This document shows, piece by piece, positions 5,851 to 21,120 of a DNA stretch of 64,000 nt (within the stretch, counting starts at the first letter, position 1; each line of letters starts with the position of its first letter). The DNA comes from an uncultured bacterium (GTDB lineage: Bacteria; Patescibacteriota; Minisyncoccia; Phycocordibacterales; PALSA-1337): contig OY969557.1 of NCBI GenBank assembly GCA_963701025.1, positions 640,090 to 704,089 of the forward strand, written 5' to 3'. The notes beneath the pieces were generated by a model, which was not told where the DNA came from, did no database searches, and worked only from the letters and a program-made list of their open reading frames with translations. Both the position numbers and the translations under genes were made by a program.

Positions 5851-7677
5851 ATGGACAAGCAACAGATACGCAACATAGCCATCATCGCTCACGTTGACCA
5901 TGGCAAGACCACCTTGACGGACGCCATCATGGCCCAGTGCGGCCACGGGGACGAGGGCTCAATGGACTCGAACGCGCTAGAACAAGAGCGCGGCATCACC
6001 ATTTACGCCAAGAATACTTCGGTCAATTACAAGGGCACGAAGATCAACATAGTGGATACGCCGGGCCACGCGGATTTCGGCTCGGAGGTGGAGCGCGTCC
6101 TGCGTTCTATCGACACCGTCCTCCTCGTCGTGGACGCCCAGGAAGGCCCGATGCCGCAGACGCGCTTCGTATTGAAAAAGTCCCTCGAACTCGGCCTGAA
6201 CCCGATCGTCATCATCAACAAGATAGACAAACCCGCGGCGAACCCGATGCGCGTGCACGATGAGATACTGGAGCTATTCATCGAGCTCGGCGCACATGAC
6301 AAACAAATAGATTTTCCGACCGTCTACGCCATCGGTCGTCAGGGTATAGCAAAGATGAAGCTCACTGATGATTCCAAAGATTTGACCCCGCTTCTCGATA
6401 CTATATTGAGCCATGTGCCACCGGCCAATACGCCGGAACAGTCGAAACTGCCTCTGGCCGCCCAGGTTTTCAACCTTGGTTATGACAATTTTCTCGGTCG
6501 TCTGGCCGCGTGCCGCATATACGACGGCGTCATCCGTGACGGACAAGAAGTATTCGTCAAACAGATCGGCAGCGCCACGACCAAAGGCAAGCTGACCAAG
6601 CTTTTCACCTATGAGGGCAAGAAGCGAGTCGAGATCCCGGAAGCCTTCGCCGGCGACATCGTCATGGTCGCTGGCCTACCCGACATATATATCGGAGAGA
6701 CTATCACCGACAATGAGGTCTCGCCGGCATTGCCCGCCATCAAAATCGACGAGCCGACCATCAGCCTCGATTTCCTGGTCAACAATTCTCCCTTTGCCGG
6801 CAGGGAAGGCAGGTTCGTCACCGGCCGTCAGATCCGCGAGCGCTTGGAAAAGGAGCTCGAGGTCAACGTCGGCCTCAAGGTCGATTTTTCCGCCAGTGAA
6901 TTCTTCAAAGTCTATGGCCGCGGCGAGCTCCACGTGGCCATTCTCCTCGAGAACATGCGCCGCGAAGGGTATGAGCTCCAGGTCTCCCAGCCGCAGGTCA
7001 TTTTTAAGAAGGAGAAAGGAGAAGGGAGTGTGGAGAATGGAAAGGAAAAAATTCTCGAGCCGTTCGAAGAGCTGACCATCGACATTCCCGAAGCGTATTC
7101 CGGCGCCGTCATCGAGAAGCTCGGCAAGCGCAAAGCCATCATGACCGACATGAAGACCAAGGACGGCCATTCGCGCATGCTCTTCGAGATCCCGACCCGC
7201 GGATTACTCGGCTACCGCAACGCATTCACCATCGACACCAAAGGCGAGGGCATATTGGCCAGTCGTTTCACCGAATTCAAGCCTTACGCAGGCGAGATAG
7301 AAAAGCGCGAGACGGGCTCCATGACTTCCATGGCTTCCGGAAAGACTCTTGGCTTCTCGCTCTGGAATCTCCAGGATCGCGGCCGCCTGTTCGTCAGACC
7401 GGCCGTGGAAGTCTATGAGGGCATGGTCATAGGCGACACCGCCAAAGGCGATGATCTAGACGTCAACCCCACCAAGGGCAAACAGCTGTCCAATATGCGC
7501 TCGTCCGGCAAGGATGAGGCTCTCATGCTCGTGCCGCCGTACGAATTGACCATCGAGCGCGGCCTCGAGCTCATGCGTGAAGATGAGTACTTGGAAATCA
7601 CGCCAAAGAGCGTGCGCTTGCGCAAGAAGTTTTTGACCGAATTGGACAGGGCCAAGTCAAAGAGGAAGGATTTGTAA
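5851..7677 (+). CDS. typA: Translational GTPase TypA/BipA
   Basis: G1 AHVDHGKTTL, G3 DTPGHADF, G4 NKID, and collinear EF-G-like domains II/III/V across 608 aa. Diagnostic for TypA/BipA. Confidence 0.92.
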   Translation: MDKQQIRNIAIIAHVDHGKTTLTDAIMAQCGHGDEGSMDSNALEQERGITIYAKNTSVNYKGTKINIVDTPGHADFGSEVERVLRSIDTVLLVVDAQEGPMPQTRFVLKKSLELGLNPIVIINKIDKPAANPMRVHDEILELFIELGAHDKQIDFPTVYAIGRQGIAKMKLTDDSKDLTPLLDTILSHVPPANTPEQSKLPLAAQVFNLGYDNFLGRLAACRIYDGVIRDGQEVFVKQIGSATTKGKLTKLFTYEGKKRVEIPEAFAGDIVMVAGLPDIYIGETITDNEVSPALPAIKIDEPTISLDFLVNNSPFAGREGRFVTGRQIRERLEKELEVNVGLKVDFSASEFFKVYGRGELHVAILLENMRREGYELQVSQPQVIFKKEKGEGSVENGKEKILEPFEELTIDIPEAYSGAVIEKLGKRKAIMTDMKTKDGHSRMLFEIPTRGLLGYRNAFTIDTKGEGILASRFTEFKPYAGEIEKRETGSMTSMASGKTLGFSLWNLQDRGRLFVRPAVEVYEGMVIGDTAKGDDLDVNPTKGKQLSNMRSSGKDEALMLVPPYELTIERGLELMREDEYLEITPKSVRLRKKFLTELDRAKSKRKDL

Positions 7678-8078
7678 TTCAGTTGCGGGTCAAATGGTGG
7701 AAATGGGCCACGAAGTTTGGTTGGTTTGAAGTTCGGCACTTTAGTCAACTAAAGTGGAATAAAAAAGCCCCGCGCGCGAGCGAGAGGTCTCGGAACACAC
7801 CAAGGCTATTCAGAATGGCGCGACACCCACAATATCGGGCCTATTCGGTTTACATGATATTGCCTGTATCCATAGAGGCCGCCGCCGATGATGATCACTG
7901 CCACCAGTATTATGATTGCTTTCATAAACCAAATTTTTTTGTTCTCTCTACCGATTGCTGGCAGAGTCGCCTTTTCAAAGGGCATTGTTTACCGCATGTT
8001 TGCTGTTTAAAAACAGACTAGCATAAAAAGGAGACTTGTCAAGTACCATTCACAAGTATTAGCTGATACAATTCGCTC

Positions 8079-8327
8079 ATGATTCAAGACTTTCTTACAT
8101 CGAACCTCAACAAGGCTGTCTATGAGATGATAGACGGCGATAAGCGGTTTTACGGAGAGATAAAGAGTTTGCGCGGCGTATGGGCTGTCGGTAAAACCCT
8201 TGAAGAATGCCGTCTCAATCTTATGACTGCAATAGAAAGCTGGCTTGTGTTTCGTCTGAAAAGGAATCTGGCGATACCTAATTTCAAAATCCGTGGCAAA
8301 CAACTGCCAGTGAGTAAATATGCCTAG
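8079..8327 (+). CDS. hicB: HicB-family (UPF0150) antitoxin-like protein
   Basis: FYGEIKSLRGVWAVGKTLEECRLNLMTAIESWL matches the HicB N-terminal RNase H-like fold signature (F.A.IPELPGC...G.TLEEA..N..EAI..WL). No C-terminal DNA-binding domain. Confidence 0.6.
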   Translation: MIQDFLTSNLNKAVYEMIDGDKRFYGEIKSLRGVWAVGKTLEECRLNLMTAIESWLVFRLKRNLAIPNFKIRGKQLPVSKYA

Positions 8328-8541
8328 ATTGTACGCAGTTTCTTGGGGAACTTTTGTCAAGAAGATGAGATTTTTGGGTTGGAGCGGTCCAAGTCAGGAA
8401 GGTAGGCATCCAGTGATGGCGAGGGGTGATGTGTCGGTGATAATACCCAACCCTCATCGAAAAGATATCGGTATAGATTTGCTAGTTAGGATATTAAGAC
8501 GGGCGGGAATATCTAGAGGTGAGTGGTTGGGGGGAAAATAG
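8320..8541 (+). CDS. hicA: HicA-family mRNA interferase toxin-like protein
   Basis: KKMRFLGWSGP...GRHPVMARGD.SVIIPNPHRKDIGIDLLVRILRRAGIS follows the HicA dsRBD-like pattern (L...GW.....GSHH.F.HP......VP.H..KDL..G.L..IL.QAGL). Overlaps hicB by 8 nt, so the two are translationally coupled. Confidence 0.55.
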   Translation: MPRLYAVSWGTFVKKMRFLGWSGPSQEGRHPVMARGDVSVIIPNPHRKDIGIDLLVRILRRAGISRGEWLGGK

Positions 8542-8570
8542 ATCAGATGCGATAGTATTTCCTTCCTCGC

Positions 8571-9545
8571 TTATTTCCAATGCGTCTTTATGTATTCCTG
8601 CGCCTCGCTCATGGAGAAAGGCTGGGTCGAATTGCCGACGCGGACGAAGAATTCCTCTTTATTATCGGGGCCTTGAAGATACGCCGGTTTATGGCTCTCA
8701 CGGACATTCACCATGCATATGTCTCGCCCTTCTATGGATTCGAACGCGATGCTGACGTATTTGGCGAATGAGAGCCCGATGAGAGTCTTTATGAGCATGT
8801 TCACGTGATTTTCAAAGCCGTCGCGGTTCTTCTTTGGCAGGGCGTTATAATCTTTTTCCAGCCCGGCGATCGTGCTATTGTCCCCGACTCCTATCAATAG
8901 AGTTCCGCCGTCGGCATTCAGAAAACCGACGATGGTCTTCAGGACCATGCGTTCCATTTCCTTGCTGACCTCGCCCTTACGGATGTCATAACGCAAAGTC
9001 TCCTTGAATTCCAGGAATAGGCCTTCGCCCCGCTCGATCAGGGCTTTTGCGTCATGAGTGACCAATCTTCCTGAAGCCGCTTGCACCGACTGCTTGACGA
9101 TGTGCAGGTATTCCTCGAAATTACCGATATTCTTGAGCTTGGTAGTCCGGCCGTTCGCGTGCTCGAGTATGATGGTGCCGTGATACATCATGCGTGACAG
9201 TGGCGATTGATAGAGCTCGACAGAGGTCACGTCGGAAAGGCTTACCGCCTTGCGCCTCCGGAAGAAAAGACCGGATTTTCGAATGATCTCTTTTTCATAT
9301 ATTTCGTAATGAGAGAAGTACCAGTCGAGGAAGAGTAGGAGGATATAGACCAGTTGGAAGAGCGAAAAAGATAGTACCAGGAACACGTGGAAAGTGATAT
9401 ACATGTGTATCGGCCAGGAATTATAAAGAGCCTCGTAGTTTTCGGCGAATTTCGCGAGATAGATGAAGGCTGCCGCCAGAAATTCCATCACCAGGACGTT
9501 TCGGATGAAGACCAGCGGTCCCTCTTTTACGACGATGCGGCGCAT
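8571..9545 (-). CDS. membrane-anchored bPH_2 (DUF304/YdbT-like) domain protein fused to an AlbA_2 / Schlafen-like putative DNA-binding domain
   Basis: N-terminus has 3 TM helices then KSGLFFRRRKAVSLSDVTSVELYQSPLSRMMYHGTIILE (bPH_2 signature). C-terminus has EGLFLEFKETL...KTIVGFLNADGGTLLIGVGDNSTIAGL, which is the AlbA_2 / Schlafen-type divergent AAA core. Confidence 0.55.
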   Translation of the reverse strand: MRRIVVKEGPLVFIRNVLVMEFLAAAFIYLAKFAENYEALYNSWPIHMYITFHVFLVLSFSLFQLVYILLLFLDWYFSHYEIYEKEIIRKSGLFFRRRKAVSLSDVTSVELYQSPLSRMMYHGTIILEHANGRTTKLKNIGNFEEYLHIVKQSVQAASGRLVTHDAKALIERGEGLFLEFKETLRYDIRKGEVSKEMERMVLKTIVGFLNADGGTLLIGVGDNSTIAGLEKDYNALPKKNRDGFENHVNMLIKTLIGLSFAKYVSIAFESIEGRDICMVNVRESHKPAYLQGPDNKEEFFVRVGNSTQPFSMSEAQEYIKTHWK

Positions 9546-9873
9546 GCTCTTATAGTATCACGGCCTTCGACTTTCCGGCGCGTCCTTTTCCTTGACTGCG
9601 CCGTCGTTTTCGCCTACCATCAAGCCAGTTTCGGTTCCTCACCCGTGTTGCGGCCTGAAGGAGGAAATACTTGGACTACCTACTTGTGAAGTCTTTTTCC
9701 CCAAGATAAGCACTTCAAAAAAGGTCGTACACAAACAAGGCCGCAGCACTTCAATTTCGAGTCCGATCTCAAATCAAAGGCGCTCCCAGTCGAGCGCCTT
9801 TTCTCATGGCGCGTTCCAGCGGCACGCATAAATCTTGATTATTCATCGGCTCCGTGATAAGCTCACCCTCACC

Positions 9874-10359
9874 ATGGCAACCAAAGTCGTCTCTCCCGTC
9901 AACGTCGAACACCGCGCCGCGCTGGACATCCGTCCCGGCGATACGGTCCGCGTCTGGCAAAAAGTCCAGGAAGACAAGGGCAAATTCCGCCTGCAGGCCT
10001 TCGAGGGCCTAGTCCTCGCCAGGAAGCACGGCCGCGAAGCCGGCGGCACTTTCACCGTGCGCAAAGTCATCGACGGCATCGGCGTCGAGCGCATCTTCCC
10101 CCTGTATTCGCCCATGATCGACGAGGTCGAGATGGTGCGCCGTTCCAAGGTCCGCCGGGCCAAGCTTTATTTCGTCCGCCGCAAAGCCGCCAAGGAGATC
10201 CGGCACCAGATGCGCCGCATCATGGCGGCAAAGTACGAAGAGGAGGCTCCGCCAGCTGGCGGACCAGCGGTCGCGAGTGTTGTTCCTACTGCCGCTCCGG
10301 CTGACGCTTCCGCCGCGGTCATTGCGGAGGCGCCCAAAGCCGAGACTACGAAAAAATAA
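9874..10359 (+). CDS. rplS: 50S ribosomal protein L19 with Ala/Pro-rich C-terminal extension
   Basis: [26 protein letters not shown]....FTVRK...[27 protein letters not shown] is the L19 signature. Start set at MATKVV; the ORF track starts 39 nt earlier. Confidence 0.85.
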
Positions 10360-10398
10360 CGATATCTGCTATAGTTCACGAGTACTTTGCGAATGAAC

Positions 10399-10482
10399 GC
10401 GCGGGTGGCGAAACTGGTAGACGTTTACGCTTGAGGTGCGTAAGCCCTTACGGGCGTGGAGGTTCGATTCCTCTCCCGCGCA
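10399..10482 (+). tRNA. tRNA-Leu (anticodon GAG), long variable arm
   Basis: Acceptor GCGCGGG/CCCGCGC, D-arm TGGCGAAACTGGTAGACG, anticodon stem TACGC/GCGTA with loop TTGAGGT, extra arm, T-arm GGAGG-TTCGATT-CCTCT. Confidence 0.8.
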
Positions 10483-10575
10483 CATGTGATTCTGGCTCCC
10501 ATACTCCGCTTCGCTCCGTTTGGGAGCTTCGCTCGGACTGAAAGTCCAAACGAGCTTGTCCTTTCATCCTCGCTC

Positions 10576-10646
10576 GCTCCCATAGTTTAATGGATAGAAC
10601 GCGAGCCTCCGAAGTTCGCGGTCCAGGTTCGATTCCTGGTGGGAGC
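10576..10646 (+). tRNA. tRNA-Arg (anticodon CCG), copy 1
   Basis: GCTCCCA TA GTTT AATGGATA GAAC G CGAGC CTCCGAA GTTCG CGGTC CAGG TTCGATT CCTGG TGGGAGC A. Confidence 0.8.
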
Positions 10647-10758
10647 ACATGTGATTCTGGCTCCCATACTCCGCTTCGCTCCCATACTCCGCTTCGCTCC
10701 GTTTGGGAGCTTCGCTCGGACTGAAAGTCCAAACGAGCTTGTCCTTTCATCCTCGCTC

Positions 10759-10830
10759 GCTCCCATAGTTTAATGGATAGAACACGAGCCTCCGAAGTTC
10801 GCGGTCCAGGTTCGATTCCTGGTGGGAGCA
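10759..10830 (+). tRNA. tRNA-Arg (anticodon CCG), copy 2 (one substitution in D-arm/position 26)
   Basis: Same cloverleaf as copy 1 with GAACACGAGCC in place of GAACGCGAGCC. Preceded by a duplicated spacer. Confidence 0.8.
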
Positions 10831-11100
10831 CAAATTCGCGAAAAACTCGGAATCGCCCGAAAAAGGCGAAAGCACATCACAATGCGGAGGGCGGGGCGGC
10901 ATTCCTCCCCAGACCCCTCCTGCCGCCCCGCCCGCTTCATTGTTGGCGTTTTTGGGGATTTCGGACACGAAGGCGAAGGGTGCACGAGGCGAAAAAACGA
11001 GGGCGCGGTCGCGGAGGAGTGGGTTCGAACCGACCTTTTGGAAAAATTCCCGAATTTTCATCTGATCATCGCTCCTCGCCAAAATACCGGCTTGTTTACA
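10831..11100. repeat. GC-rich structured repeat, module P1, copy A (abuts 3' end of tRNA-Arg)
   Basis: About 95% identical to the reverse complement of 13893-14100. Contains a long imperfect hairpin GCGGAGGGCGGGGCGGCA-loop-TGCCGCCCCGCCCGC. The 10773..11117 and 10822..11109 ORFs inside it are treated as spurious. Confidence 0.6.
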
Positions 11101-11171
11101 GTCGTTTAGGAAGTTGACTACCGGTTCGAACCGACTCGACGAGACGCGTCCGAAAGCTACCAATTTGTCTT

Positions 11172-12387
11172 TCAAAATCTGCTTTTCGGTAGACGAGCTT
11201 GTTTTTGGTAGTCTTGATATTCTTCCAGCGTCAAAGCGTTCTCAAGATAAGCGGTCATAAGTTTGTCGAGCTTGGCATCAACAGCCGTGACTTCAGCATT
11301 CACTTTTTGAATTTGGTCTTTTGAGGAATTGTTGTCTTCAGCTTTCTCTTTCTCAACCTCGGCAATGAGCCAATCGGCCACAGCATCAGACAACGATACT
11401 TTCTCCAGTTCCGTTTTGATCATATCGGTCATAGCCTCCTCGCGGACATACTTTTGCGAGCATGGTCCCTTCCTTTTGGTACATCGCAAGTAGTTATGGC
11501 CTTTCTGCGTCTCGGCGGTGATGGAACAGCCGCATTCGCCGCACTTGAATAGTCCGCGATATACATACGGTTTCAAACCACCACCGTGCTGAGGTTTGCT
11601 TTTTCTGCGTCATCATCTCCTGGCAAGTGTCAAAAAGCTTCTTCGTGATGATAGGCTCATGCTTACCTTCGTAAAACTCGCCGCCCACGTACATGAGTCC
11701 ATGGTACAGGGTATTTTTGAGAAGAGATTGATAGTTGGAAATGGAAAGCTCTTTTCCCGTATGGCTTCTTAAGCCAAGAGTGCCCATGACCTTCTTCAAT
11801 CCAGAGAGGGTGTAGTTGCCGGAGCCGTATGCTTCAAACATTTTCCTAATAAGCGGAGCTCTATCAGGATCGACAATGATCGATTTGCTTTTCTTGTCCC
11901 ACAGATATCCCATCGGAGCTTTATGCGGCCAGATGCCATTCTTCAATTTCTGACGATAACTGCGTTTGATATTCTCCGAGAGGTTGTCGACAAAATATTT
12001 ACTCTGGCCGAAGGCAATGGAGAGCATGAATTTGCCCTGCGGAGTTGCATCAAACCAGAATGTCGGGAACTTGAGATCCGTAATCATGCCGGTATCCACG
12101 AGATATATCACCTTACCTCCATCAACCGAGTTGCGAGCTAAACGATCTGGATGCCATGCGAGGATACCAGAAGCCTCACCGGCCTCTATACGCTCCAACA
12201 TCTCCGCGAATACAGGCCTGCCCGGTACTTTCGCCGTTTGTTTCTCGACGAAAATATCAACGACCTCCAGTTGCTCTTTTTTGGCGAGCTCGCGCAGCTC
12301 GGAGAGCTGGTCGGCAAGCGATCTCACTTGCCGATCCTCGGTGTCGGTAGACTTTCTGGTATAAATAAAATATTTTTTCTCACTCAT
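11172..12387 (-). pseudogene. large serine recombinase (resolvase catalytic domain, recombinase domain, zinc ribbon, coiled-coil), interrupted by a frameshift
   Basis: ORF 11494..12387 has the N-terminal YTRKSTD..Q..SL..Q resolvase motif with catalytic Ser plus a recombinase domain. ORF 11172..11576 has the zinc ribbon (KPYVYRGLFKCGECGCS...YLRC) and a coiled-coil. The frames switch at an A5 run (cagaaaaagc, about 11590-11600). Confidence 0.75.
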
Positions 12388-12481
12388 GGATACATTTTAC
12401 CATTTTTCAGTGAAGTCAAGAAAAGTTCATAAGAAGGGGATAGAAATACATTCATACGAATTTTCGTTGACTACTTGACAC

Positions 12482-13000
12482 ATGACCATATTTGATATAG
12501 TTTCTAAATCAGAAAGGATTAGAATTATGAAAAATCGAATTGTAGTGACTGTTCTTCACGACATGGCTGGCAGTTTGTATGAGCAGGGTTGGCGGAATGG
12601 CCTATTTAGGCCGATCGCTCATATGTCGCTTGGGTATGGCTCGGATGGATGCAAAGACACGGAGGTGGATTTCGCCGAATCAATCACATTCCTTGTGGAA
12701 GCTGTCAACGATGAAAAATCGCGAGTATTGGTTCTTGGAACCTGTCCGCGGACCATTACATCATCATGGATCAAAGCTGCTGAATTGGTTATCAAGGGGA
12801 GCGACGTCAAAACAGTCGTTATACCCATTGCCAAGCTTCTTAACAGGGACATGAGCAACCCGATGATTGACGGCTCGATCATCTTTGTTGATAAGTCAGG
12901 CATTTTCAGGATCGAAAAGCCCGGCCATATGTTAGCAAATGATTTTGTCGAGGTATTCTCTCAGAGTGCCAGACTCTTCAATCAACAAGTGTCTGGATAA
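12482..13000 (+). CDS. hypothetical protein (moderately low GC)
   Basis: 172 aa ORF with no recognisable motifs. Followed by an intrinsic terminator. Confidence 0.4.
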   Translation: MTIFDIVSKSERIRIMKNRIVVTVLHDMAGSLYEQGWRNGLFRPIAHMSLGYGSDGCKDTEVDFAESITFLVEAVNDEKSRVLVLGTCPRTITSSWIKAAELVIKGSDVKTVVIPIAKLLNRDMSNPMIDGSIIFVDKSGIFRIEKPGHMLANDFVEVFSQSARLFNQQVSG

Positions 13001-13020
13001 TACACTTTCTCAAATCACAA

Positions 13021-13049
13021 AGGTCCGGTCATCATACCCGGCCTTTTTT
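13021..13049 (+). terminator. Rho-independent terminator after 12482..13000
   Basis: GGTCCGG tcatcatac CCGGCC followed by TTTTTT. Confidence 0.5.
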
Positions 13050-13051
13050 AA

Positions 13052-13635
13052 TTCCAAGGAAACCCCGCATGAGGAAGACGCATGGCTTCCGAAATGCGGG
13101 GATGAATTGGTCCATCTGCGTATCGCCTCCGGAGGAGGCGACATGGTACGCTAAAGGTTCCATGAGGACCCGAAGCTTAAACCACTCGGTATATCAGACT
13201 CAATATCACATTGTCTGGGGCACGAAGTATCGCAGGAAGTACCTGAAGGACTATGTAAACACCGAATTCAGGCTGGCCTGCTGGGAAGTAGTGAAGAAAT
13301 ATCCCACGCTCTTCATACATACGGTAAACACGGACAACGATCATATCCACCTCCAGATCGAGATACCACCGAATATGTCTGTGGCTGCCGTCGTCAAGGC
13401 ACTTAAGATCGAATCGAGCGTGAGGCTCAAGAAACGATTCAAATTCATCAGGGAGATGTACATCGACGGCAGCATCTGGAGCGTGGGGTATTTTGTCTCC
13501 ACCATCGGCCTAAACGAAACTCAAATCAAGAATTACATACAATACCAAGGCAAGAAGGACCTCGGCCACACCCTCCGCATACGCTTCGGGTCCTCGTGAC
13601 CCTAAAAGGAAACCCCGCATGAAATGCGGGGAGGA
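13052..13635 (+). mobile_element. IS200/IS605-family insertion sequence (tnpA only), with subterminal hairpins
   Basis: Left end AAGGAAACCCCGCATG...CATGCGGGG is a compound hairpin (13063-13101). Right end AAGGAAACCCCGCATGAAATGCGGGG is a perfect 8-bp hairpin (13613-13631). Both ends share the AAGGAAACCCCGCATG sequence and bracket a Y1 transposase gene. Confidence 0.65.
13162..13599 (+). CDS. tnpA: IS200/IS605-family transposase TnpA (HUH Y1 transposase)
   Basis: YHIVWGTKYRRKYL, the HUH motif DHIHLQIEIPP, and the SIWSVGYFVSTIG region with catalytic Tyr. About 145 aa, typical TnpA size. Confidence 0.8.
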   Translation: MRTRSLNHSVYQTQYHIVWGTKYRRKYLKDYVNTEFRLACWEVVKKYPTLFIHTVNTDNDHIHLQIEIPPNMSVAAVVKALKIESSVRLKKRFKFIREMYIDGSIWSVGYFVSTIGLNETQIKNYIQYQGKKDLGHTLRIRFGSS

Positions 13636-13649
13636 GGTCATTATACTTA

Positions 13650-14300
13650 AAATTATTTCATAACACACGTACCGCCGAGAAGCGGTCGACTTCCGCTTCT
13701 CCTCACGGACTTTTGTTCGCGCCCGGCGGATGTCGGTGCGGCGGAGCACCCCACGGTCGCCCAAAAGCGACGGTGGAAGGTGCGAGAGCCGTACGGACAG
13801 ACGCTCCGGGCGCGCCACAGGCTCTGTGGAAGCGGAAGTGGGCCGCTTCGAGCCACTGCGATGATTGCGATCTGCGTTTGCGATGAAAGATAAATAAGCC
13901 GGTGAGAATCCGACTCCTCCGCGACCGCGCCCTCGTTTTTTCGCCTCGTGCACCCTTCGCCTTCGTTCCGGAAATCCCCAAAAACGCCAACAAGGATGCG
14001 GGCGGGGCGGCAGGAGGGGTCTGGGGAGGAATGCCGCCCCGCCCTCCGCATTGTGATTTGCTTTCGTCTTTTTCGGGCGATTCCGAGTTTTTCGCGAATT
14101 TGTGCCGATTCCTGAACAAAGTTCGAACCTTTTTCGCCGAAAATCCGACATGAATGGTTGCGCCTTCGCTCTGCTCGGCGCGGTGAAAGGGCGGACGGAG
14201 GACTGGGGGTGTGGGGGAAGGACTCCGTCCGCCCTTCCTCTTCGTTTTCGCGCGCCGCCGTGCCGGTTTTTTCGGGCGGGGGCGCTGAAATCTTATCCAC
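13650..14300. repeat. composite GC-rich structured repeat, copy B (modules H + P1 + P2)
   Basis: H module at 13677-13852 is bounded by hairpins GAGAAGCGG-TCGACTT-CCGCTTCTC and GAAGCGG-AAGTGGG-CCGCTTC. P1 at 13893-14100 matches the reverse complement of 10831-11060. P2 at 14100-14290 contains the perfect 12-bp hairpin GGGCGGACGGAG...CTCCGTCCGCCC and matches the reverse complement of 23171-23395. Three overlapping minus-strand ORFs in all three frames are taken as GC artefacts. Confidence 0.6.
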
Positions 14301-14383
14301 ATATAAGGAAATTGACATTTAGATAAGGATACGCTACCCTTACTAATATGGTATGTATTTACATACAGAATTAATTTATCACT

Positions 14384-14602
14384 ATGAATCAAGATCAAAA
14401 AAGAGAACGATTTAAACGCTTAGGAGTACAGCGTACGAACGCTGTTTTACAGAAGCTAAAAGTGCTTGGCAATTGTTCGAATAGAAGCGCTTATAACTAT
14501 ACCGAGGAAGAAATCAATAAAATCTTTTTAGAGGTTGAACGCCGGGTTCGTGAGACCAAAGCAAAATTCCACTTTCCTAAGAATAAAGAATTTAAACTAT
14601 GA
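14384..14602 (+). CDS. small basic protein, translationally coupled to downstream GHKL ATPase
   Basis: 72 aa and Lys/Arg-rich. Its stop overlaps the next ATG (ATGA). Begins a sharply low-GC islet immediately after the GC-rich repeat. Confidence 0.45.
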   Translation: MNQDQKRERFKRLGVQRTNAVLQKLKVLGNCSNRSAYNYTEEEINKIFLEVERRVRETKAKFHFPKNKEFKL

Positions 14603-16965
14603 AAAATGAGGATATTAAGAATCTTGCTCTTGCATTAGTTAAGGCAGATACAGAGAAAGAGGTTGTTAAAGTCTTAAAAGATTTTTATCTTTGGGATGAC
14701 CAAAAATCTTGGAAGGAAGTTGATCAAAGCGCAGGAAACTGGTCAACAATCGGGAACCAACAAAGTGCGCCCGACACTGCACTTGTCGAGAAGATAATTA
14801 ATTCGGTCGATGCAGTATTAACACGGGAATGTCTAAGGGAAGGCATAGACCCCAAAAGTGACGCGGCACCTAAAAGTATCGTAGAAGCTCAAAAAAGATA
14901 TTTTGGAATCCATAACGGAAAACTTTCTAGTATTGATGCCAATATGAGAGCGAGTATCGCGGAGAATATTTTTCTTGTCGCTACTGGCGATAAGACAAAT
15001 CCCTCCTACTCAATAATTGACTTAGGAGAAGGTCAATCACCGGAGTCTTTTTCTGATACCTTTCTGTCTCTGAATAGAGGAAATAAAAGTAATGTTCAAT
15101 TTGTACAAGGAAAGTTCGGAATGGGCGGTACGGGAGTTTTCAGATTTGGCAGTCCGGAACATAACCTTCAATTAATAATTTCTAAAAAAGATCCCTCTAT
15201 TAAGTTTGGTAAGAAAAGCGAACAATGGGGGATGACCGTCATTAGACGTATTCCTCCGACTGGACAAATGCGAAGTTCAATTTTTACATATCTTGCTCCA
15301 AATAACAGCGTTCTCTCTTTTACTGCACAATCCCTACCTCTTTTGCCGGGAAAACACCCCAATGCTTACTCGAATCAGCTTTCGTGGGGGTCATTTATAA
15401 AGATCTATGAGTATGATCTCGTCGGCCTTAAAAGTAACGTACGATTTGATTTGTTTTATCGTCTATCATTGCTTTTGCCAAATATAGCTTTACCAATAAC
15501 TCTTTGTGAGCGAAGAGATTATAACGACAAAGATGGTAAAACGAGGGATATGAAGATTACCATGTCTGGATTAAGTGTTCGTCTTGACGAAGACAAAAGA
15601 GATAATCTTGAAGAGGATTTTCCCAGCACAGGTGAATTAAGTGTAAAAGGTCAGAGAATGGATTATTCAATATATGCTTTTAAAAAAGATCGCAGGAGGA
15701 CTTATTCAGGAAATGAAGGCGTTGTGTTTACTGTAAATGGTCAGGCTCATGGCTTTTTACCAAAAACATTTTTTGAACGCAAGGCAGTTGGCATGTCGTA
15801 TCTTTCCGATAGCATCCTTATTCTCATTGACTGTTCGAAGATTGACAGAAGAAGACAGGAAGATTTATTTATGAACAGCCGTGATCGTCTTAGCGGCGGA
15901 CCACTTCAAAGTGAAATTGAACAGCAATTAGAGGAAATCATTAAAAATCACCAAGGCCTCCGGGCATTAAGAGAGAAGAGACGCAGAGAAGATATTGAGA
16001 ATAAATTACAAGATTCAAGACCGTTGGCGGAAGTTCTCGAAAACATAATAAAGAAATCTCCATCTCTATCAAGTCTATTTACGCAAGGAGTAAGGATAAA
16101 AAATCCTTTCAATCTTGCCGGTGCAACGGAAAATGGGAAGTTTAAGAGTAAAAAATTCCCGACTTATTTTGAGCTGACGAAGAAATATCCAGCTGAAAAA
16201 CCAAAATCATGCCCTATTAACAACAGGAAGTTTCGTATTCAATTTGAGACTGATGCGGAGAATGATTATTTCAATCGAGATAAAGAGCCGGGTGGTATAA
16301 CTGTTAAGATAAACGGGGGCACTATTGAAGACTATTCGCTTAATCTATGGAATGGATTGGCAACTCTGAATATTGAGATTCCCAATACGGTAAAAATTGG
16401 GGATATTCTCTGTTTTTCAACAGAAGTAATAGATCATACACGAGTAGAGCCATTTTCTAACGAATTTTGTATAAAAATTGAAGAATCTCAAAAAGACGGG
16501 GAAGGAAAAAATGGTGATAGGAAAAAATCTTCAGGAAAGAAATCTGGCGAGGGAAGGAAAAAGCCCACATATCTTGATATTCCGAATGCTTGGGAAGTAC
16601 GTAGAAATGAATGGGACAAGCACAGCTTTGATGACAAGAGTGCTTTGAAGGTTGTAGATGCGGGGGAAGAGTCCGGGTACGATTTTTATATCAACATGGA
16701 TAATGTCTACCTCCAGATGGAAATCAAGGAGAATATAAAGGTTGACCCCAAGCTTCTGGAAGCAAGATTTAAGTATGGAATGGTTTTGCTAGGTATCTCG
16801 CTACTTGATTTTGAAGAGAAGAATAAGAAAACAGAAAGTCAATCCTCAAGAGAAAATGATAACATGTCAATCTTTGATAAAATTTTACTTTTTTCGAGAG
16901 CAATTTCCCCGACACTGCTCCCGATGATTGCCTCACTTGGAGATTTACAGCTAGGAACAGAGTAG
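14599..16965 (+). CDS. large GHKL/Bergerat-fold ATPase (Hsp90/MORC/sacsin-like HATPase) with long uncharacterised C-terminal region
   Basis: N-box VEKIINSVDAVL (E..N..DA), G1 box IIDLGEGQS (D.G.G), G2 box GKFGMGGTGVF. 788 aa with a Lys-rich low-complexity segment near residue 640. Low-GC islet. Confidence 0.6.
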   Translation: MKNEDIKNLALALVKADTEKEVVKVLKDFYLWDDQKSWKEVDQSAGNWSTIGNQQSAPDTALVEKIINSVDAVLTRECLREGIDPKSDAAPKSIVEAQKRYFGIHNGKLSSIDANMRASIAENIFLVATGDKTNPSYSIIDLGEGQSPESFSDTFLSLNRGNKSNVQFVQGKFGMGGTGVFRFGSPEHNLQLIISKKDPSIKFGKKSEQWGMTVIRRIPPTGQMRSSIFTYLAPNNSVLSFTAQSLPLLPGKHPNAYSNQLSWGSFIKIYEYDLVGLKSNVRFDLFYRLSLLLPNIALPITLCERRDYNDKDGKTRDMKITMSGLSVRLDEDKRDNLEEDFPSTGELSVKGQRMDYSIYAFKKDRRRTYSGNEGVVFTVNGQAHGFLPKTFFERKAVGMSYLSDSILILIDCSKIDRRRQEDLFMNSRDRLSGGPLQSEIEQQLEEIIKNHQGLRALREKRRREDIENKLQDSRPLAEVLENIIKKSPSLSSLFTQGVRIKNPFNLAGATENGKFKSKKFPTYFELTKKYPAEKPKSCPINNRKFRIQFETDAENDYFNRDKEPGGITVKINGGTIEDYSLNLWNGLATLNIEIPNTVKIGDILCFSTEVIDHTRVEPFSNEFCIKIEESQKDGEGKNGDRKKSSGKKSGEGRKKPTYLDIPNAWEVRRNEWDKHSFDDKSALKVVDAGEESGYDFYINMDNVYLQMEIKENIKVDPKLLEARFKYGMVLLGISLLDFEEKNKKTESQSSRENDNMSIFDKILLFSRAISPTLLPMIASLGDLQLGTE

Positions 16966-17029
16966 CCAGAAATGTTGATAAAAGAAAACAGAACAGGTTT
17001 GATATGATAAAATTACACTCTGTCGAATT

Positions 17030-17791
17030 ATGCAAAAACTTTTCATCAAAAACCGTAAGGACCAGAAAATCGCCGTCGTCATAGATCAGCCCGCCAAAGC
17101 GCGTGGTATGGCTTTCGTGACCCACGGTCTGGGCGGATTCAAGGAACAGGCCCACATCCGAACCATGGCGCAAGCTTTTCTCGATAACGGCTATACCGTG
17201 GTGACATTCGATACCACGAATACATTCGGCGAAAGCGACGGAAGCTATGACGATGCCACCGTAACCAATTATTCTGAAGATCTCGAGGATGTCGTAGCTT
17301 GGTCAAAAAGCCAACCGTGGTACATGGAACCATTCTGTCTGGCCGGACACAGCCTGGGTGCCATTTCTGTCGCCCTGTATGCCCAGAAATATCCGAAGCT
17401 CGTCAAAGGCCTGGCTCCAATCTCCACGGTAGTATCAGGCAAATTAAGCATGGACAGGGAGAAAGATTTCGATGGTTGGAAGAAAAAGGGGTATCAAGAA
17501 AAGATCAGTAACTCAAAGCCTGGTCTTGTCGGCAAGCTCAAGTGGTCGCATATGGAAGATCGGCTCAAATATGATCTCTTGCCAAAAGCAAATCTCCTGA
17601 CCATGCCGGTCTTGATGATAGTCGGCTCAGAAGATGTGCCTACGCCAGTGCGTCATCAGCAAATACTCTACGACGCATTGCCTGGCAGGAAAGAGATGTA
17701 TGTCATAGAAGGATCGCCGCATACATTCAGAGATGAGAAGCATCTGAAGCAGGTGTACCAACATTTTGATAAGTGGATTAAGACTTTATAA
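17030..17791 (+). CDS. alpha/beta-fold hydrolase (dienelactone hydrolase / S9-like)
   Basis: HGLGG oxyanion region, nucleophile elbow GHSLG, late acidic residue (GSEDVP) and His (SPHTF) in canonical order. Confidence 0.75.
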   Translation: MQKLFIKNRKDQKIAVVIDQPAKARGMAFVTHGLGGFKEQAHIRTMAQAFLDNGYTVVTFDTTNTFGESDGSYDDATVTNYSEDLEDVVAWSKSQPWYMEPFCLAGHSLGAISVALYAQKYPKLVKGLAPISTVVSGKLSMDREKDFDGWKKKGYQEKISNSKPGLVGKLKWSHMEDRLKYDLLPKANLLTMPVLMIVGSEDVPTPVRHQQILYDALPGRKEMYVIEGSPHTFRDEKHLKQVYQHFDKWIKTL

Positions 17792-17800
17792 TTTAACCAT

Positions 17801-18337
17801 ATGTCCATCACTCTTATTTTTGAAGCTCACGGCACTACATTCGATAACGAAGCACATTTGTCTTCGGGCTGGAATGATGTGGCGTTGTCGCCGCTTGGAG
17901 AGAAGCAGTCAAAAGAGATGGGCGAACGCTACAAGGAAGATCATTTCGATGCTATTTTCTGCTCTGACCTACAGCGCGCCTATCACTCAGCCGAGATCGC
18001 TTTTGGTGATAAGTTTCCAATCATACAAGATAAGCGCTTACGTGAATGCGACTATGGCGACTTTACACAAAAGCCGAGTGAAATCGTAGATGCGGAAAAA
18101 CCAAAGCACATCACGGTGCCATTTCCTCGCGGTGAAAGTTATATACGGACTACACACCGAATGGGGTTATTTATCGATCACTTGAAGAAAAATTATGACG
18201 GTAAACGCGTCATGGTCATCGGCCATCGCGCTACACAGTATGGCATTGAAAACATCGTAAACGGCGTGCCGCTCGAACAGCTTGTTACCACGCATTTCAA
18301 GTGGCAGCCGGGGTGGAAATATGAGCTAAACAAATAA
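17801..18337 (+). CDS. histidine phosphatase (phosphoglycerate mutase-like) family protein
   Basis: N-terminal AHGTT..N (RHG-like motif with Arg replaced by Ala), ..G..D..LS..G..Q, DAIFCSDLQRAYHSAEI, and a later VMVIGHRATQ. Overall PGM-fold architecture. Confidence 0.55.
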   Translation: MSITLIFEAHGTTFDNEAHLSSGWNDVALSPLGEKQSKEMGERYKEDHFDAIFCSDLQRAYHSAEIAFGDKFPIIQDKRLRECDYGDFTQKPSEIVDAEKPKHITVPFPRGESYIRTTHRMGLFIDHLKKNYDGKRVMVIGHRATQYGIENIVNGVPLEQLVTTHFKWQPGWKYELNK

Positions 18338-18339
18338 TT

Positions 18340-18777
18340 ATGAAAAATTGTGTATATTGCACATTGCCGGAAATACAAGCCAGAAGAGTTACAGAGAACA
18401 AACTCGCTGTAGCTTTTCCGACTAATATTCCGATAACTCCTGGACACATGCTTATCATTCCGAAAAGATGCGTTGCACGCTATGAAGATTTAACAAGCGA
18501 TGAGAAAAATGCAATCGAGGAACTCCGAATGAAGATCGTTGGTGCTCTGAAGAAGGTATTTGGCGCGGAGGGTTTTAATTTTGCATGGAATGATGGCAAA
18601 CTTGCAGGTCAATCCATTCCGCATTTTCATTTACATATAATCCAGAGAAAACACGGTGATACAGGTATTCTTGAATATGAGCCAAGGAAGTTTATCTACA
18701 GACCAGGTGAACGAGAGACTTCTCCAGAGGAGGAACTGCTTGCGATAAGTGAGCTAGTCAAAAAGGAGATAAAGTAA
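18340..18777 (+). CDS. HIT (histidine triad) family protein
   Basis: Histidine triad HFHLHII plus the upstream P..PGH.L.IPKR motif. Confidence 0.85.
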   Translation: MKNCVYCTLPEIQARRVTENKLAVAFPTNIPITPGHMLIIPKRCVARYEDLTSDEKNAIEELRMKIVGALKKVFGAEGFNFAWNDGKLAGQSIPHFHLHIIQRKHGDTGILEYEPRKFIYRPGERETSPEEELLAISELVKKEIK

Positions 18778-18791
18778 AAATCTTAAAATAT

Positions 18792-19505
18792 ATGCAAATC
18801 GAATCAAAACAACAAATTCTCGCTCGACGGAAAGAGCTTGAGCAAGAGATCGTGGAGATGCTCGAAGAAACCGAGAGCAATTTCGAGCTTGCCGACGTGC
18901 TCGATGCCATATACGAGGAAGAGGAGAACGACGATATGACGAAGATCATAGCCATGTTCGACAATGGCGACATGAGCCAATTGAGCAATGTCCTTGAACT
19001 GGTTACCGATGCCTGGAATTATTTCCCCCATAAAGCTCTGGGCGGGATATCCCCGTCGGAGAAATCATTGGAATACGCAGAGAAGCATCCGACGAAGACA
19101 AAAAGCAAGAAAGGAGTGGATACCATGCCTCGCGTTTGCGTCGGCAACAGGGAGATGTCATGGGACGAGCATCAAGCCATGCTCAAGGAAATGGCAAGGG
19201 CTCAGGAACCATTCAAGAAGTGGATTTCTGGTGTGCTCGCGGATTACCGGTCGTTCTTGAAGCAGGAGAGATTGTCAGCCAAGATGGTTGATAAGCATTA
19301 CTTCATCGCCGAGACATTTTTCGACAGGGTTCTGTGGCTGGGCTGGGTGAATTTCGGAAGCATCAGAAAGGAATTCACTAGCGATGAGTTTCCAAAGTGG
19401 TGGAAGACGCATGTAGTCGCTTCTGGGATTGATGATTCGAAAGAAGTTAAAAATTCCGTGCGTAAACTGGTTGATTTTATAGAGGCTAAATATGTTGTTA
19501 AGTAG
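18792..19505 (+). CDS. hypothetical protein (acidic N-terminal coiled region)
   Basis: 237 aa ORF with good coding periodicity and no recognisable motif. Confidence 0.45.
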   Translation: MQIESKQQILARRKELEQEIVEMLEETESNFELADVLDAIYEEEENDDMTKIIAMFDNGDMSQLSNVLELVTDAWNYFPHKALGGISPSEKSLEYAEKHPTKTKSKKGVDTMPRVCVGNREMSWDEHQAMLKEMARAQEPFKKWISGVLADYRSFLKQERLSAKMVDKHYFIAETFFDRVLWLGWVNFGSIRKEFTSDEFPKWWKTHVVASGIDDSKEVKNSVRKLVDFIEAKYVVK

Positions 19506-19538
19506 CCGAAGTTGCCATAACTATCGTATAATAAATTT

Positions 19539-20183
19539 ATGAGCACCAACATCGATTATTGGGAAAAAGTCTTGGAAAATCCGACGCCTGACTTCAAGGC
19601 TCTTTTCGACGCGGAATTGACTTACATTCGGTCGCGCGTTCCGGGGAATTCCAAAGTTCTCGAGATCGGTTGCGGTAATGGCAGGAATATCAGGTCTATC
19701 GCCGAATTCACGAAGGACATCATCGGAATCGACAACGATCCGAAAGCGGTCGAAGACGCACAGAAGAACCTCGCCGGATTTTCAGGCGTAAAGATAATGC
19801 TGGCCGACGTTCTCGATCTGCCGTTCCCAGATAAATCTTTTGACGTCATGATATTCTTGGATACTCTGGTCAACATGAAAGAAAACAAAGTCCAAGCATT
19901 GAAGGAGATGAGCAGGGTGTTGACGGATGACGGCAAAATAATCATCAGCGTATATTCCGAGGACGCTTTCGATGCGCGCATGGACATTTACAAGATAGTG
20001 AATGCTCCCATAAACAAGACCGAAGGCACGAAAGTCACGTTCGACGAAAGTCTTGCGGCGAATGTATCGGAGCAGTTTAGCAAAGAAGATATAGAAGGTT
20101 TGGCCGATCAGTCTGGATTGAATCTTGTCGATTGTAAAAAAGTGCCAGGAATCGCGTATATTTGTACGCTAGCCAAAAAATAA
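19539..20183 (+). CDS. class I SAM-dependent methyltransferase
   Basis: Motif I VLEIGCGNGRN, motif II acidic IDNDP, motif post-I/III FDVMIF. 214 aa. Confidence 0.8.
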   Translation: MSTNIDYWEKVLENPTPDFKALFDAELTYIRSRVPGNSKVLEIGCGNGRNIRSIAEFTKDIIGIDNDPKAVEDAQKNLAGFSGVKIMLADVLDLPFPDKSFDVMIFLDTLVNMKENKVQALKEMSRVLTDDGKIIISVYSEDAFDARMDIYKIVNAPINKTEGTKVTFDESLAANVSEQFSKEDIEGLADQSGLNLVDCKKVPGIAYICTLAKK

Positions 20184-20246
20184 AACCCGCCTACGGTTAG
20201 AACGTAGTGCGGGTCGTGAATTTGCGTATTACTTCTGGGAACATGA

Positions 20247-20537
20247 TTATCCCCCAAGCTCACTTGCGGTCGGAATGCGCACCGGGAAGGCACATCCGCC
20301 CGGATTATCGCAGACCTTCTCGAAGTTATCGAAGGCAGCCTGCGATTTCGGACCAAGTTTGGTTCGTGCTGGTTTATTGAGTTTTTCGAGATCAGCGCCG
20401 AATTCCTCGATGATCGCCTTTCGCACCTGCTTGAAGCTTTCATTCAGGGCTGTTCGGCGTTCGGCCGTGTAGCCGAACATCATGCTCGAATATTGCTCCT
20501 GGTTTAATTTGATGCAGACGTCGCCTAAGGTAGACAT
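20247..20537 (-). CDS. hypothetical small protein, downstream of membrane transporter gene in same orientation
   Basis: 96 aa ORF, 28 nt after the stop of 20566..20973 on the same strand. Confidence 0.35.
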   Translation of the reverse strand: MSTLGDVCIKLNQEQYSSMMFGYTAERRTALNESFKQVRKAIIEEFGADLEKLNKPARTKLGPKSQAAFDNFEKVCDNPGGCAFPVRIPTASELGG

Positions 20538-20565
20538 AATTTTCTTTTTGTTTTTGGTTGCTTGT

Positions 20566-20973: not shown

Positions 20974-21010
20974 ATTATTTCCTTGGTTAAGGGTTTGTTG
21001 TCAAAGTTCA

Positions 21011-21076: not shown

Positions 21077-21120
21077 GAGCGGTGTTTTGGTAGCCACTTC
21101 ACTACCGCCGGCAGTCAAGA

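Follow-up and report, generated by a model that had tools for sequence, protein, structure and literature searches.

What brought two tandem tRNA-Arg genes, a repeat, a broken large serine recombinase (LSR) gene and an IS200/IS605 element side by side in the window (the whole 64,000-nucleotide stretch of DNA analysed here)? An initial annotation had read the locus as an integration hot-spot, the scar of one or more integration or recombination events at tRNA-Arg, and as the possible boundary of an element that includes a low-GC GHKL islet farther downstream. All of the annotated features were confirmed at or close to their given positions. The features at the left end of the locus, together with the gene beyond its right end, are:

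10399-10483, plus strand: tRNA-Leu(GAG), called by ARAGORN and Rfam
10484-10648, plus strand: spacer and tRNA-Arg(CCG) copy 1 (tRNA 10576-10647/8; ARAGORN; Rfam 66.5 bits)
10649-10831, plus strand: spacer and tRNA-Arg(CCG) copy 2 (tRNA 10759-10830/1; ARAGORN; Rfam 66.8 bits)
10828-10833, plus strand: attL core GCACAA (last acceptor bases, discriminator A and CAA)
10828-11023, plus strand: P1 arm (P' arm of the att site and outer copy of inverted repeat I1)
23406-23965, plus strand: cobA (PduO-type cob(I)alamin adenosyltransferase), which originally adjoined tRNA-Arg on the right

Comparison with relatives, which the initial annotation had proposed for finding an empty site and attL/attR, supported an integration at tRNA-Arg. 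Four related metagenome contigs (L087-L090), whose flanks are 71-85% identical to the window at the nucleotide level, carry an empty site in which rplS, tRNA-Leu, a single tRNA-Arg(CCG) and ~20-25 nt are followed by cobA and, in L090, tRNA-His; the 12.5 kb between 10834 and 23379 in the window is therefore an insertion at the tRNA-Arg 3' end. The core GCACAA, native to the empty sites of L088-L090, stands at both ends of the insertion (the far copy, attR, at 23374-23379), and the target tRNA-Arg is regenerated, with a full gene called by both ARAGORN and Rfam. An Rfam search of 9-25 kb detected nothing other than the tRNAs. The GHKL islet lies inside the insertion, as had been suspected, but neither a hot-spot nor a series of integrations is needed, because one island and one later insertion of IS200 and an adjoining ORF suffice. 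We conclude that 10834-23379 is very probably a single LSR-integrated tRNA-Arg island, a dead copy of a Patescibacteria family that carries a second, inverted attP.

The repeat module reported directly after the second tRNA-Arg is real, and it has an inverted copy within the island. The remaining island features are:

13676-13909, minus strand: Q module, conserved, with three hairpins, between the inner repeat arm and the LSR promoter
13910-14284: internal inverted complete attP (P1rc 13910-14105, core TTGTGC 14100-14105, P2 14100-14284)
14285-22964, plus strand: cargo segment, GC 44%
22965-23194, minus strand: Q' module, a diverged second Q copy beside the far arm
23195-23379, minus strand: P2rc arm (P arm), ending in the attR core GCACAA

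P1 and P1rc match over 196 nt at 96% identity, and P2rc is a 100% identical inverted copy of 14100-14284. The island thus runs tRNA-Arg/P1, recombinase segment, P1rc/P2, cargo, P2rc/cobA, and a single 6-bp core is common to the three junctions, which read as attL, an internal inverted complete attP, and attR. In the Q module 94% of cells are paired, with compensatory changes in 13 of 43 pairs. P1, P2 and Q always occur together with the LSR in other genomes; we rejected the idea that they are genome-wide REP/MITE-type repeats, as no further copies were found in the 64 kb. The inverted partners of the repeats, which the initial annotation lacked, are to us the most interesting part of the locus.

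The arms have the geometry of serine integrase sites. The distance from TTCGAA to the core is 16 nt in the P arm versus 11 nt in the tRNA arm (27 loci and the window), matching the 5-bp inward shift of the zinc-ribbon motif in attB relative to attP that has been described for serine integrases (PMC3783163). The P2rc tip, GGTTCGAAC...GCA, looks like a tRNA 3' end, and the tRNA-Leu 3' end (GGTTCGATTCC-N8-GCACA) is similar to an attB half-site. Two observations count against the integration reading: the P' arm consensus and the P arm share only weak symmetry, and no conserved motif was found in the B' half of attB. We infer that the LSR recombined an island attP (P2rc arm, core GCACAA, P1 arm) with an attB made of the tRNA-Arg(CCG) 3' end, copy 2 contributing the left half, and the sequence 5' of cobA, a reaction that would have produced attL (tRNA-Arg/P1, at 10828) and attR (P2rc/cobA, at 23379). 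The internal attP divides the island into an LSR segment (P1-P1rc) and a cargo segment (P2-P2rc), so the predicted circular form would consist of the inverted repeat, the LSR segment, the reverse-complemented repeat and the cargo segment.

A tandem duplication of the spacer and tRNA-Arg (10483-10830) had also been described, and it is present as a direct repeat of 155 nt at 99% identity with a spacing of 183 nt; the second spacer (10649 onwards) contains an additional 18-bp tandem repeat (10665-10682 and 10683-10700). Metagenome assemblies are error-prone at repeats and inverted repeats, and the duplication could be a repeat error and the recombinase frameshifts base-calling errors in an intact gene, an explanation that we consider highly improbable. 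Window 7296-10509 is matched at 100% identity, 3.2 kb without a difference, by an independent short-read assembly (Logan ERR11718638, L001) whose contig stops exactly at the graph branch predicted at k=31 for the junction between the first tRNA-Arg and the following spacer, which supports the duplication as real. It is not a classical att duplication, since both copies are complete and relatives have only one; copy 1 retains the ancestral G26. In our best explanation the duplication would have arisen separately and within this lineage, with its junction on the same GCACA motif, and we prefer a microhomology-mediated origin. Two LSR-based origins fit poorly: despite the GCACA junction, an attB x attB exchange is no LSR reaction, and recombination between the internal attP and tRNA-Leu would give an inversion, not a duplication.

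The artefact explanation bears equally on the recombinase, which, as initially reported, is encoded in the opposite orientation and broken. The features involved are:

10747-12387, minus strand: LSR pseudogene, 546 codons when repaired
12394-12419, minus strand: LSR promoter (TTGACT, 17 nt, TGGTAAAAT), conserved in relatives by alignment consensus
12424-13675, plus strand: secondary insertion of ORF172 and an IS200/IS605 element, 1.25 kb, missing from related LSR cassettes
12482-13000, plus strand: ORF172, with no family match
~13050-13640, plus strand: IS200/IS605 element, tnpA at 13165-13599

Resolvase (PF00239, 4e-19) and Recombinase (PF07508, 1e-11) domains were found in the ORF at 11494-12387 and a Zn_ribbon_recom domain (PF13408, 7e-10) in the ORF at 11172-11576. 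The repaired protein aligns with homologues of 520-545 aa, with coverage of 98-100% and identities reaching 91%. Nucleotide alignment with intact genes (L085 and L002) revealed three 1-nt insertions, at ~11606, ~11211 and ~11192, rather than the single frameshift at an A5 run that had been annotated; the A5 run is conserved in the intact homologues, and the extra base sits 2 nt away (CGC[A]GAAAAA). Homopolymer sequencing error was thus rejected as the cause of the frameshifts. Sequencing error in general might appear to gain from the 297-aa LSR fragment, which an exact-product look-up did not find on record as a called gene, and from the nearby cobA, in which a single base is inserted compared with four intact relatives. 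However, none of the LSR insertions is a homopolymer-length change and two of the three have an adjoining substitution, 98% of the housekeeping flank (1-10.4 kb) lies in stop-free runs of at least 150 codons, and dozens of independent assemblies show the same architecture, among them the complete chromosome L027 (OY969413.1). Judged by its sequence, the window LSR is a pseudogene and not an intact, expressible gene.

The ORF172 and IS200 block sits just 5' of the LSR promoter. The annotated IS200-like element with subterminal hairpins (13052-13635) held up: its TnpA matches Pfam at 3e-30 and the NCBIfam equivalog NF033573 at 114.7 bits against a cutoff of 55, and the hairpins CCCCGCAT...ATGCGGGG lie at 13063-13101 and 13613-13631. 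It resembles IS200/IS605 elements in its Y1 HUH transposase, hairpins at both ends and lack of terminal inverted repeats, and differs in having no tnpB; ORF172, which adjoins it, may be no part of the IS. A promoter and terminator consensus scan of 10350-14700 gave no excess over shuffles. The three frameshifts and the insertion by the promoter amount to decay and leave the window copy immobilised.

Between P1 and the recombinase a 70-bp gap had been annotated, but there is none: the minus strand of P1 encodes the LSR C-terminal tail, and the repaired frame crosses P1 into antisense tRNA-Arg. Homologues share the P1-encoded tail and diverge exactly past ...ANLC, which is the core, continuing into antisense tRNA (P0001), P2 (P0002) or other sequence. 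The P2-type tail of P0002 is ambiguous, though compatible with a circular form carrying attP.

LSR homologues occupy at least 552 loci in genome representatives (genome contigs), nearly all of them Patescibacteria, and 84 loci were fetched for architecture. An inverted-repeat match of 23-212 bp flanks the LSR in 74 of the 84, and in ~44 both arms are complete (120-212 bp, mostly 95-100% identical). Sixty-six loci have a convergent tRNA at the LSR 3' end; it overlaps the repeat tip in 40 of these, by 3-12 nt in 37. The targets are the 3' ends of tRNA-Ser, tRNA-Gln, tRNA-Arg and other tRNAs. A second inverted-repeat pair surrounds 1.2-9 kb of cargo in 14 of 24 loci tested, each locus with its own shared core. 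To the left of the inner repeat the sequence is conserved from genome to genome, indicating that this flank is part of the element. In 42 of 42 loci no stop interrupts the LSR frame anywhere in the right repeat, against 24 and 32 stops in the other two frames. The layout of the island is no local accident: a very large family in Patescibacteria is built this way as standard. IMG/VR yielded a single relative, LSRs of annotated phage and plasmid collections are at most 27% identical to this one, and our literature search on serine recombinases, Patescibacteria/CPR, inverted attP and attachment-site recognition found no description of this LSR family.

Two long, near-perfect inverted-repeat pairs around a recombinase and a gene cassette could also belong to a phase-variation system that flips the P1/P1rc segment, the P2/P2rc segment or both, with the position at tRNA-Arg incidental. 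The LSR 3' end lies within the repeat, so the ORF would stay intact in either orientation, and the P2-type tail of P0002 is what a flipped cassette, or a free attP, would give. We nevertheless regard DNA inversion as very unlikely indeed: the LSR 3' end points towards the tRNA in all 66 loci that have one and the position of the first cargo gene is constant in 6 of 6 comparable elements, relatives lack all of the 12.5 kb, and its junctions act as attL and attR. The enzyme is also of the large serine integrase type; the small size, C-terminal HTH and dual orientation of Hin/Gin-type invertases are absent from a family with LSR architecture and one orientation.

Alternatively, the island could consist of two adjacent elements, an IS-like LSR cassette (P1...P1rc, normally ~1.6-2.1 kb) that transposes via a palindromic circle joint and mobilises a non-autonomous cargo element (P2...P2rc) in trans. 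Each unit separately has long terminal inverted repeats, many homologue contigs are just ~2 kb, as expected of a repeated cassette, LSR units are paired with differing P2 types and cargo, and in L054 and L074 the LSR cassette stands alone between two convergent tRNA-Ser genes. Several observations make this arrangement unlikely. The left flank of the cassette is a conserved P2-type arm in the ~44 loci whose two repeat tips are both resolved, never arbitrary host DNA; the motif at the P2 tip is spaced as in attP (16 nt) and not as in attB (11 nt), so a T/P2 target would be a hybrid of the attL kind, and serine integrases do not use such a site as a partner for attP; a palindromic joint predicts either orientation, yet orientation is fixed; and both units are missing together from the window's empty site. 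We also considered a palindromic central dinucleotide that would let each unit form its own circle. The cores GCACAA and CCGC are compatible with it, that of L039 (CCAC) is not, and the random orientation it would entail was not seen.

The single-island reading leaves the internal attP to be explained. Our preferred guesses are that it serves as an operator or insulator of the LSR gene, as a live second attP capturing other tRNA sites, or both. More broadly, the internal inverted attP and the crossover-spanning ORF may be functional design features of a widespread family of integrative elements in Patescibacteria, a reading we hold only tentatively. If they are functional, a live second attP acting at other tRNAs could produce chromosomal inversions and the cassettes between convergent tRNAs of L054 and L074, a 2-micron-like circular form would be possible, and the tail-swap could alter recombinase activity after integration, providing control of directionality without a separate directionality factor. 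Two identical inverted attPs predict both orientations and one is seen; either the two are used unequally, or the internal copy arises or acts in some other way.

The window's cargo encodes p72, a 788-aa protein, an alpha/beta hydrolase, a histidine phosphatase, a HIT protein, a 237-aa protein, a SAM methyltransferase, an EamA-like protein and a winged-HTH protein. The 788-aa protein has a weakly GHKL-like N-terminus; searches of PDB and Pfam with the protein returned only a sub-threshold HATPase_c_3 match. PADLOC gave weak or generic matches only on the cargo, and no replication gene was found in it. Stop-codon recoding, considered as a reason for short ORFs in 24-64 kb, gave no clear signal. 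Across the family, cargo includes restriction-modification and other accessory genes, and elements whose LSR units are 85-92% identical carry unrelated cargo.

Little is known about the mobile elements of the Candidate Phyla Radiation. One survey of horizontal transfer in Patescibacteria predicts islands and mentions no recombinases, integrases or tRNAs. The number of loci and their accessory cargo suggest that this LSR family may be one of the principal ways in which tiny Patescibacteria genomes acquire genes. A serine integrase with a retained extra attP in inverted orientation, a reading frame that continues across its own crossover site and recognition of the universal tRNA T-arm makes questions of directionality and site choice directly testable, and the family's enzymes and sites could serve genome engineering. 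The window itself is more ordinary, a dead island copy struck by IS200.

The family shares features with several known systems. Phage-type LSRs (A118/LI, phiC31, Bxb1, SPbeta SprA/YokA) have the same resolvase, recombinase, zinc ribbon and coiled-coil domains, a short common core and an arm motif 5 bp farther out in attP; in contrast to them, the Patescibacteria family targets tRNA 3' ends, has an ORF that spans the crossover, and carries a second inverted attP with flanking perfect repeats of 120-290 bp. SCC elements (CcrA/CcrB/CcrC) and the XisF fdxN element are likewise LSR-moved chromosomal cassettes with a specific site at a gene 3' end, and by profile no named LSR families come closer than CcrB (96 bits) and XisF (84 bits), both far short of the family cutoffs of 900 and 375 bits; the internal att sites of SCC arrays are direct, not inverted, and the target is no tRNA. 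The IS607 model scores 25 bits against a cutoff of 110, which the window LSR fails, and IS607 has a MerR-like HTH N-terminal to the catalytic domain. Tn4451 and Tn5397 use many targets and lack long inverted repeats, whereas the present family has tRNA 3' ends as targets and long inverted repeats.

Tycheposons of Prochlorococcus and Islander-type tDNA islands resemble the window island: they are small, sit at tRNA 3' ends in small genomes, leave the tRNA regenerated and carry variable cargo beside a site-specific recombinase. They belong to another phylum, are overwhelmingly based on tyrosine recombinases (27 of 937 elements have an LSR in the tycheposon preprint) and are bounded by direct partial-tRNA repeats; an internal inverted att site is not reported for them. 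SSV1-type archaeal integrases also have the crossover inside the recombinase ORF, so that integration alters the gene product, but these are tyrosine recombinases whose gene is split mid-way, and here only codons past the core are exchanged. The predicted circle has the topology of the yeast 2-micron plasmid (FLP/FRT), with two inverted repeats, a central site in each and the recombinase in one segment. FLP, however, is a tyrosine recombinase, the window cargo lacks a recognised replication gene, and 2-micron flips its segments, whereas the orientation of the Patescibacteria element appears fixed.

A large serine recombinase (LSR) gene lies on the minus strand between two inverted repeats, P1 (10828-11023) and P1rc (13910-14105; 96% identity). 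Adjoining the inner P1 copy is a second repeat, P2 (14100-14284), whose inverted copy, P2rc (23195-23379), is 100% identical and lies directly upstream of cobA and tRNA-His. All features listed in the initial annotation were found in the window; the main ones, together with two hairpin modules of the island, are as follows.

Features of the tRNA-Arg island and its left border (window coordinates)
10399-10483, tRNA-Leu(GAG) (ARAGORN, Rfam)
10576-10648, tRNA-Arg(CCG) copy 1 (ARAGORN, Rfam)
10759-10831, tRNA-Arg(CCG) copy 2 (ARAGORN, Rfam)
11494-12387 and 11172-11576, minus strand, ORFs with Resolvase, Recombinase and Zn_ribbon_recom domains
13069-13599, ORF, IS200 Y1 transposase
13676-13860, hairpin module Q
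23005-23160, Q', a diverged copy of Q

The hexamer GCACAA is common to all three junctions of the island.

Junctions sharing GCACAA, with their proposed att roles
Junction 1 (attL): tRNA-Arg, GCACAA, P1
Junction 2 (internal attP): P2rc, GCACAA, P1, at 14100-14105, reverse strand
Junction 3 (attR): P2rc, GCACAA, cobA leader

From this pattern, an empty site with cobA immediately after tRNA-Arg would be expected. The initial annotation had proposed a scar of integration at tRNA-Arg, to be checked against relatives lacking the insertion. When metagenome contigs were searched with a degenerate pattern, four such sites (L087-L090) were recovered. Each reads rplS, tRNA-Leu, one tRNA-Arg(CCG), ~20-25 nt with a TATAAT box and the ATG of cobA, with 71-85% identity to the window flanks; tRNA-His is additionally present in L090, and a native GCACAA follows the acceptor stem in three of the four. 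Because these relatives carry the empty site, 10834-23379 represents inserted DNA, 12,546 bp in length; the same sites place the low-GC, GHKL-containing islet, previously suggested to belong to an integrated element, within its cargo.

The tandem [spacer + tRNA-Arg] units are 99% identical and spaced by 183 nt, with an extra 18-bp repeat inside the second spacer. L001, a Logan short-read assembly (run ERR11718638), matches window 7296-10509 with zero differences and ends at the point at which an Arg#1-to-spacer junction, if present, forces a k=31 graph to branch. Since it stops exactly at this predicted branch, we take the duplication, for which read support had been sought, as real; the single-copy state is ancestral, as the empty-site relatives have one tRNA-Arg(CCG). 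At the duplication junction (GAGCACA/TGTGATT), the Arg 3' end is joined to the sequence following tRNA-Leu, and the GCACA common to both is also the att core motif; from its sequence, tRNA-Leu looks like a secondary attB. The LSR was considered as the direct maker of the duplication but is disfavoured, as no allowed LSR reaction yields such a product directly. We favour a microhomology-mediated event. Farther into the native flank, just upstream of rplS, 8571-9545 encodes a protein that combines bacterial PH and Schlafen/AlbA_2 domains, possibly a defence-type gene.

The position of a TTCGAA motif bears on the identity of the attachment sites. In 27 loci of the tRNA-Ser-associated (Ser) clade, the distance from the end of TTCGAA to the core is 16 nt in the element P arm and 11 nt in the tRNA T-loop, and the window has the same spacing. 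In serine integrase sites, the zinc-ribbon motif lies 5 bp further inward in attB than in attP (PMC3783163). Because the difference between the two spacings matches this shift, it supports reading the P2rc-P1 joint as attP and the tRNA end as an attB half-site. Alternatively, the LSR cassette (the segment between P1 and P1rc) could be an IS inserted beside a separate cargo transposon. The TTCGAA spacing argues against this, as the target would then be an attL-like hybrid, and so does the fixed orientation of the cassette.

With the P2rc-P1 joint read as attP, the crossover falls within the recombinase gene. In 42 of 42 loci, no stop interrupts the LSR frame along the whole length of the right repeat, tip included, versus 24 and 32 stops in the remaining two frames, and the ORF ends 9-157 nt past the crossover; integration therefore swaps the last recombinase codons. 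Homologue C-termini have the P1-encoded tail in common and diverge exactly after ...ANLC, which corresponds to the core: beyond it, homologue P0001 continues into the antisense of another tRNA-Arg and P0002 into P2 sequence, the attP configuration. A P2rc-P1 joint would read identically in a circular form and in the internal attP.

Once repaired, the window LSR comprises 546 codons, and its reading frame crosses P1 and reaches into antisense tRNA-Arg. A protein search with it returned thousands of homologues of 520-545 aa, with 98-100% coverage and up to 91% identity, and those that were named carry labels of Patescibacteria or member lineages. The gene is indeed broken, but not by the single slip at an A5 run first suggested: aligning it at the nucleotide level with the two most similar intact genes revealed three 1-nt insertions, at ~11606, ~11211 and ~11192. 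These do not alter the length of a homopolymer, and two of the three adjoin a substitution; for these reasons we infer that the decay is genuine. Close homologues in other assemblies (P0070, 333 aa; P0077, 297 aa; P0055, P0061 and P0065) are truncated at other positions, so post-integration decay seems common in this family.

Upstream of the conserved LSR promoter, and 4 nt from it, lies a 1.25-kb block (12424-13675) comprising ORF172 and IS200 that related cassettes lack. The IS200 transposase ORF is flanked by hairpins CCCCGCAT...ATGCGGGG at 13063-13101 and 13613-13631. ORF172 (12482-13000) has its own promoter-like sequence and terminator, and had no match in Pfam, NCBIfam, PADLOC or any fetched locus; it arrived together with IS200 or next to it. 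In the window's clade, Q is a conserved ~180-nt three-hairpin element situated between the inner repeat arm and the promoter of the LSR, with Q' at the far arm and homologues in nine loci (L085, L002, L008, L011, L014, L023, L044, L012 and L010). Covariation is evident in the central hairpin of Q: paired cells make up 94%, and double changes occur in 13 of 43 pairs, compared with 6.2 +/- 1.5 in shuffles and no more than 4 in slid controls. Adjoining attR, cobA (PduO-type cob(I)alamin adenosyltransferase; 23406-23965) has one extra base at ~23600-23620 relative to four intact relatives, reflecting either a pseudogene or a base error.

Beyond tRNA-His, window 24055-64000 has 39% GC, versus 53% upstream of the island, and only six ORFs of at least 280 aa in 40 kb, with a Fic gene at 24229-25131; L090 has nothing in common with the window beyond tRNA-His. 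There was no clear sign of stop-codon recoding in this stretch, possibly a further sizeable accessory region that begins at tRNA-His. Four direct-repeat pairs (50-63 nt, 76-89% identical, 440-570 nt apart) were found.

Direct-repeat pairs
21011-21060 and 21577-21626, pair 1, within the cargo
32833-32895 and 33352-33414, pair 2
45669-45723 and 46110-46164, pair 3
53541-53597 and 54038-54094, pair 4

The copies in the cargo lie upstream of small, unrelated minus-strand ORFs, and shared terminators or regulatory elements are a possible explanation for the pairs.

Scanning a single genome for each species identified at least 552 loci of the LSR family, most with record titles of Patescibacteria lineages (Taylorbacteria, Paceibacterota, Kaiserbacteria, Uhrbacteria, Nomurabacteria and Minisyncoccia). 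Of 84 LSR loci inspected, 74 have an inverted-repeat match flanking the LSR (23-212 bp), and in ~44 both arms are complete (120-212 bp, mostly 95-100% identical). A convergent tRNA lies at the LSR 3' end in 66; in 40 of these the final tRNA bases extend over the repeat tip, with an overlap of 3-12 nt in 37. The target varies by clade among tRNA-Ser, -Gln, -Arg, -Ile, -Lys and -Ala. Sequence outside the inner arm is conserved from genome to genome and thus belongs to the element, and in 14 of 24 loci tested it has a perfect inverted copy 1.2-5 kb farther off, with cargo in between. Each locus has its own core, common to its three junctions. Cargo, which includes restriction-modification genes and XRE regulators, is unrelated among elements whose LSR units are 85-92% and P2 arms 93-98% identical. 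Because family loci have the same architecture, the window island is a typical, though damaged, member. Seven cassettes 60-66% identical to the window's, beside tRNA-Ser (L022, L028, L034, L037, L050, L059 and L067), come from MAGs labelled Longimicrobiaceae, Actinomycetota, Gammaproteobacteria, Bdellovibrionales or Verrucomicrobiota, and are probably misbinned Patescibacteria contigs.

What the internal, inverted attP does can be framed in several ways. A 2-micron-like flip as a steady state is unlikely, since each of the two segments has one and the same orientation from genome to genome. The site could plausibly act as an operator or insulator of the recombinase gene, because the Ser-clade LSR start codon lies ~21 nt beyond the inner repeat. 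The site may also still be active and rearrange chromosomes: at L054 (5763-7567) and L074 (5765-7569), two full-length tRNA-Ser genes that converge and differ in anticodon bracket the cassette, and the P2 arm is missing, the layout expected if the internal attP recombined with a second tRNA gene, of which it may be the footprint. If so, a stretch of chromosome would have been inverted. L063 (5760-7419) has the same left-hand tRNA-Ser before the contig ends. The position of the first cargo gene, which adjoins the internal attP and points away from the LSR, is conserved; in the window (14384-14602) it encodes a 72-aa protein, of which L018 (5064-5273) has a homologue at 56% identity, and in the Ser clade (L027, L028, L030, L042, L043 and L051) an XRE-type HTH protein of 65-70 aa. 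This first gene is a candidate for a regulator or a directionality factor.

By domain content, the window enzyme is a large serine integrase. It shares at most 27% identity with LSRs of annotated phages or plasmids, scores far under the CcrB and XisF model cutoffs, and has one relative in IMG/VR. An internal inverted attP, long perfect repeats and an ORF-spanning crossover were not found in the literature searched. Functionally, the window island is like the tycheposons, which are tRNA-targeting cargo islands.
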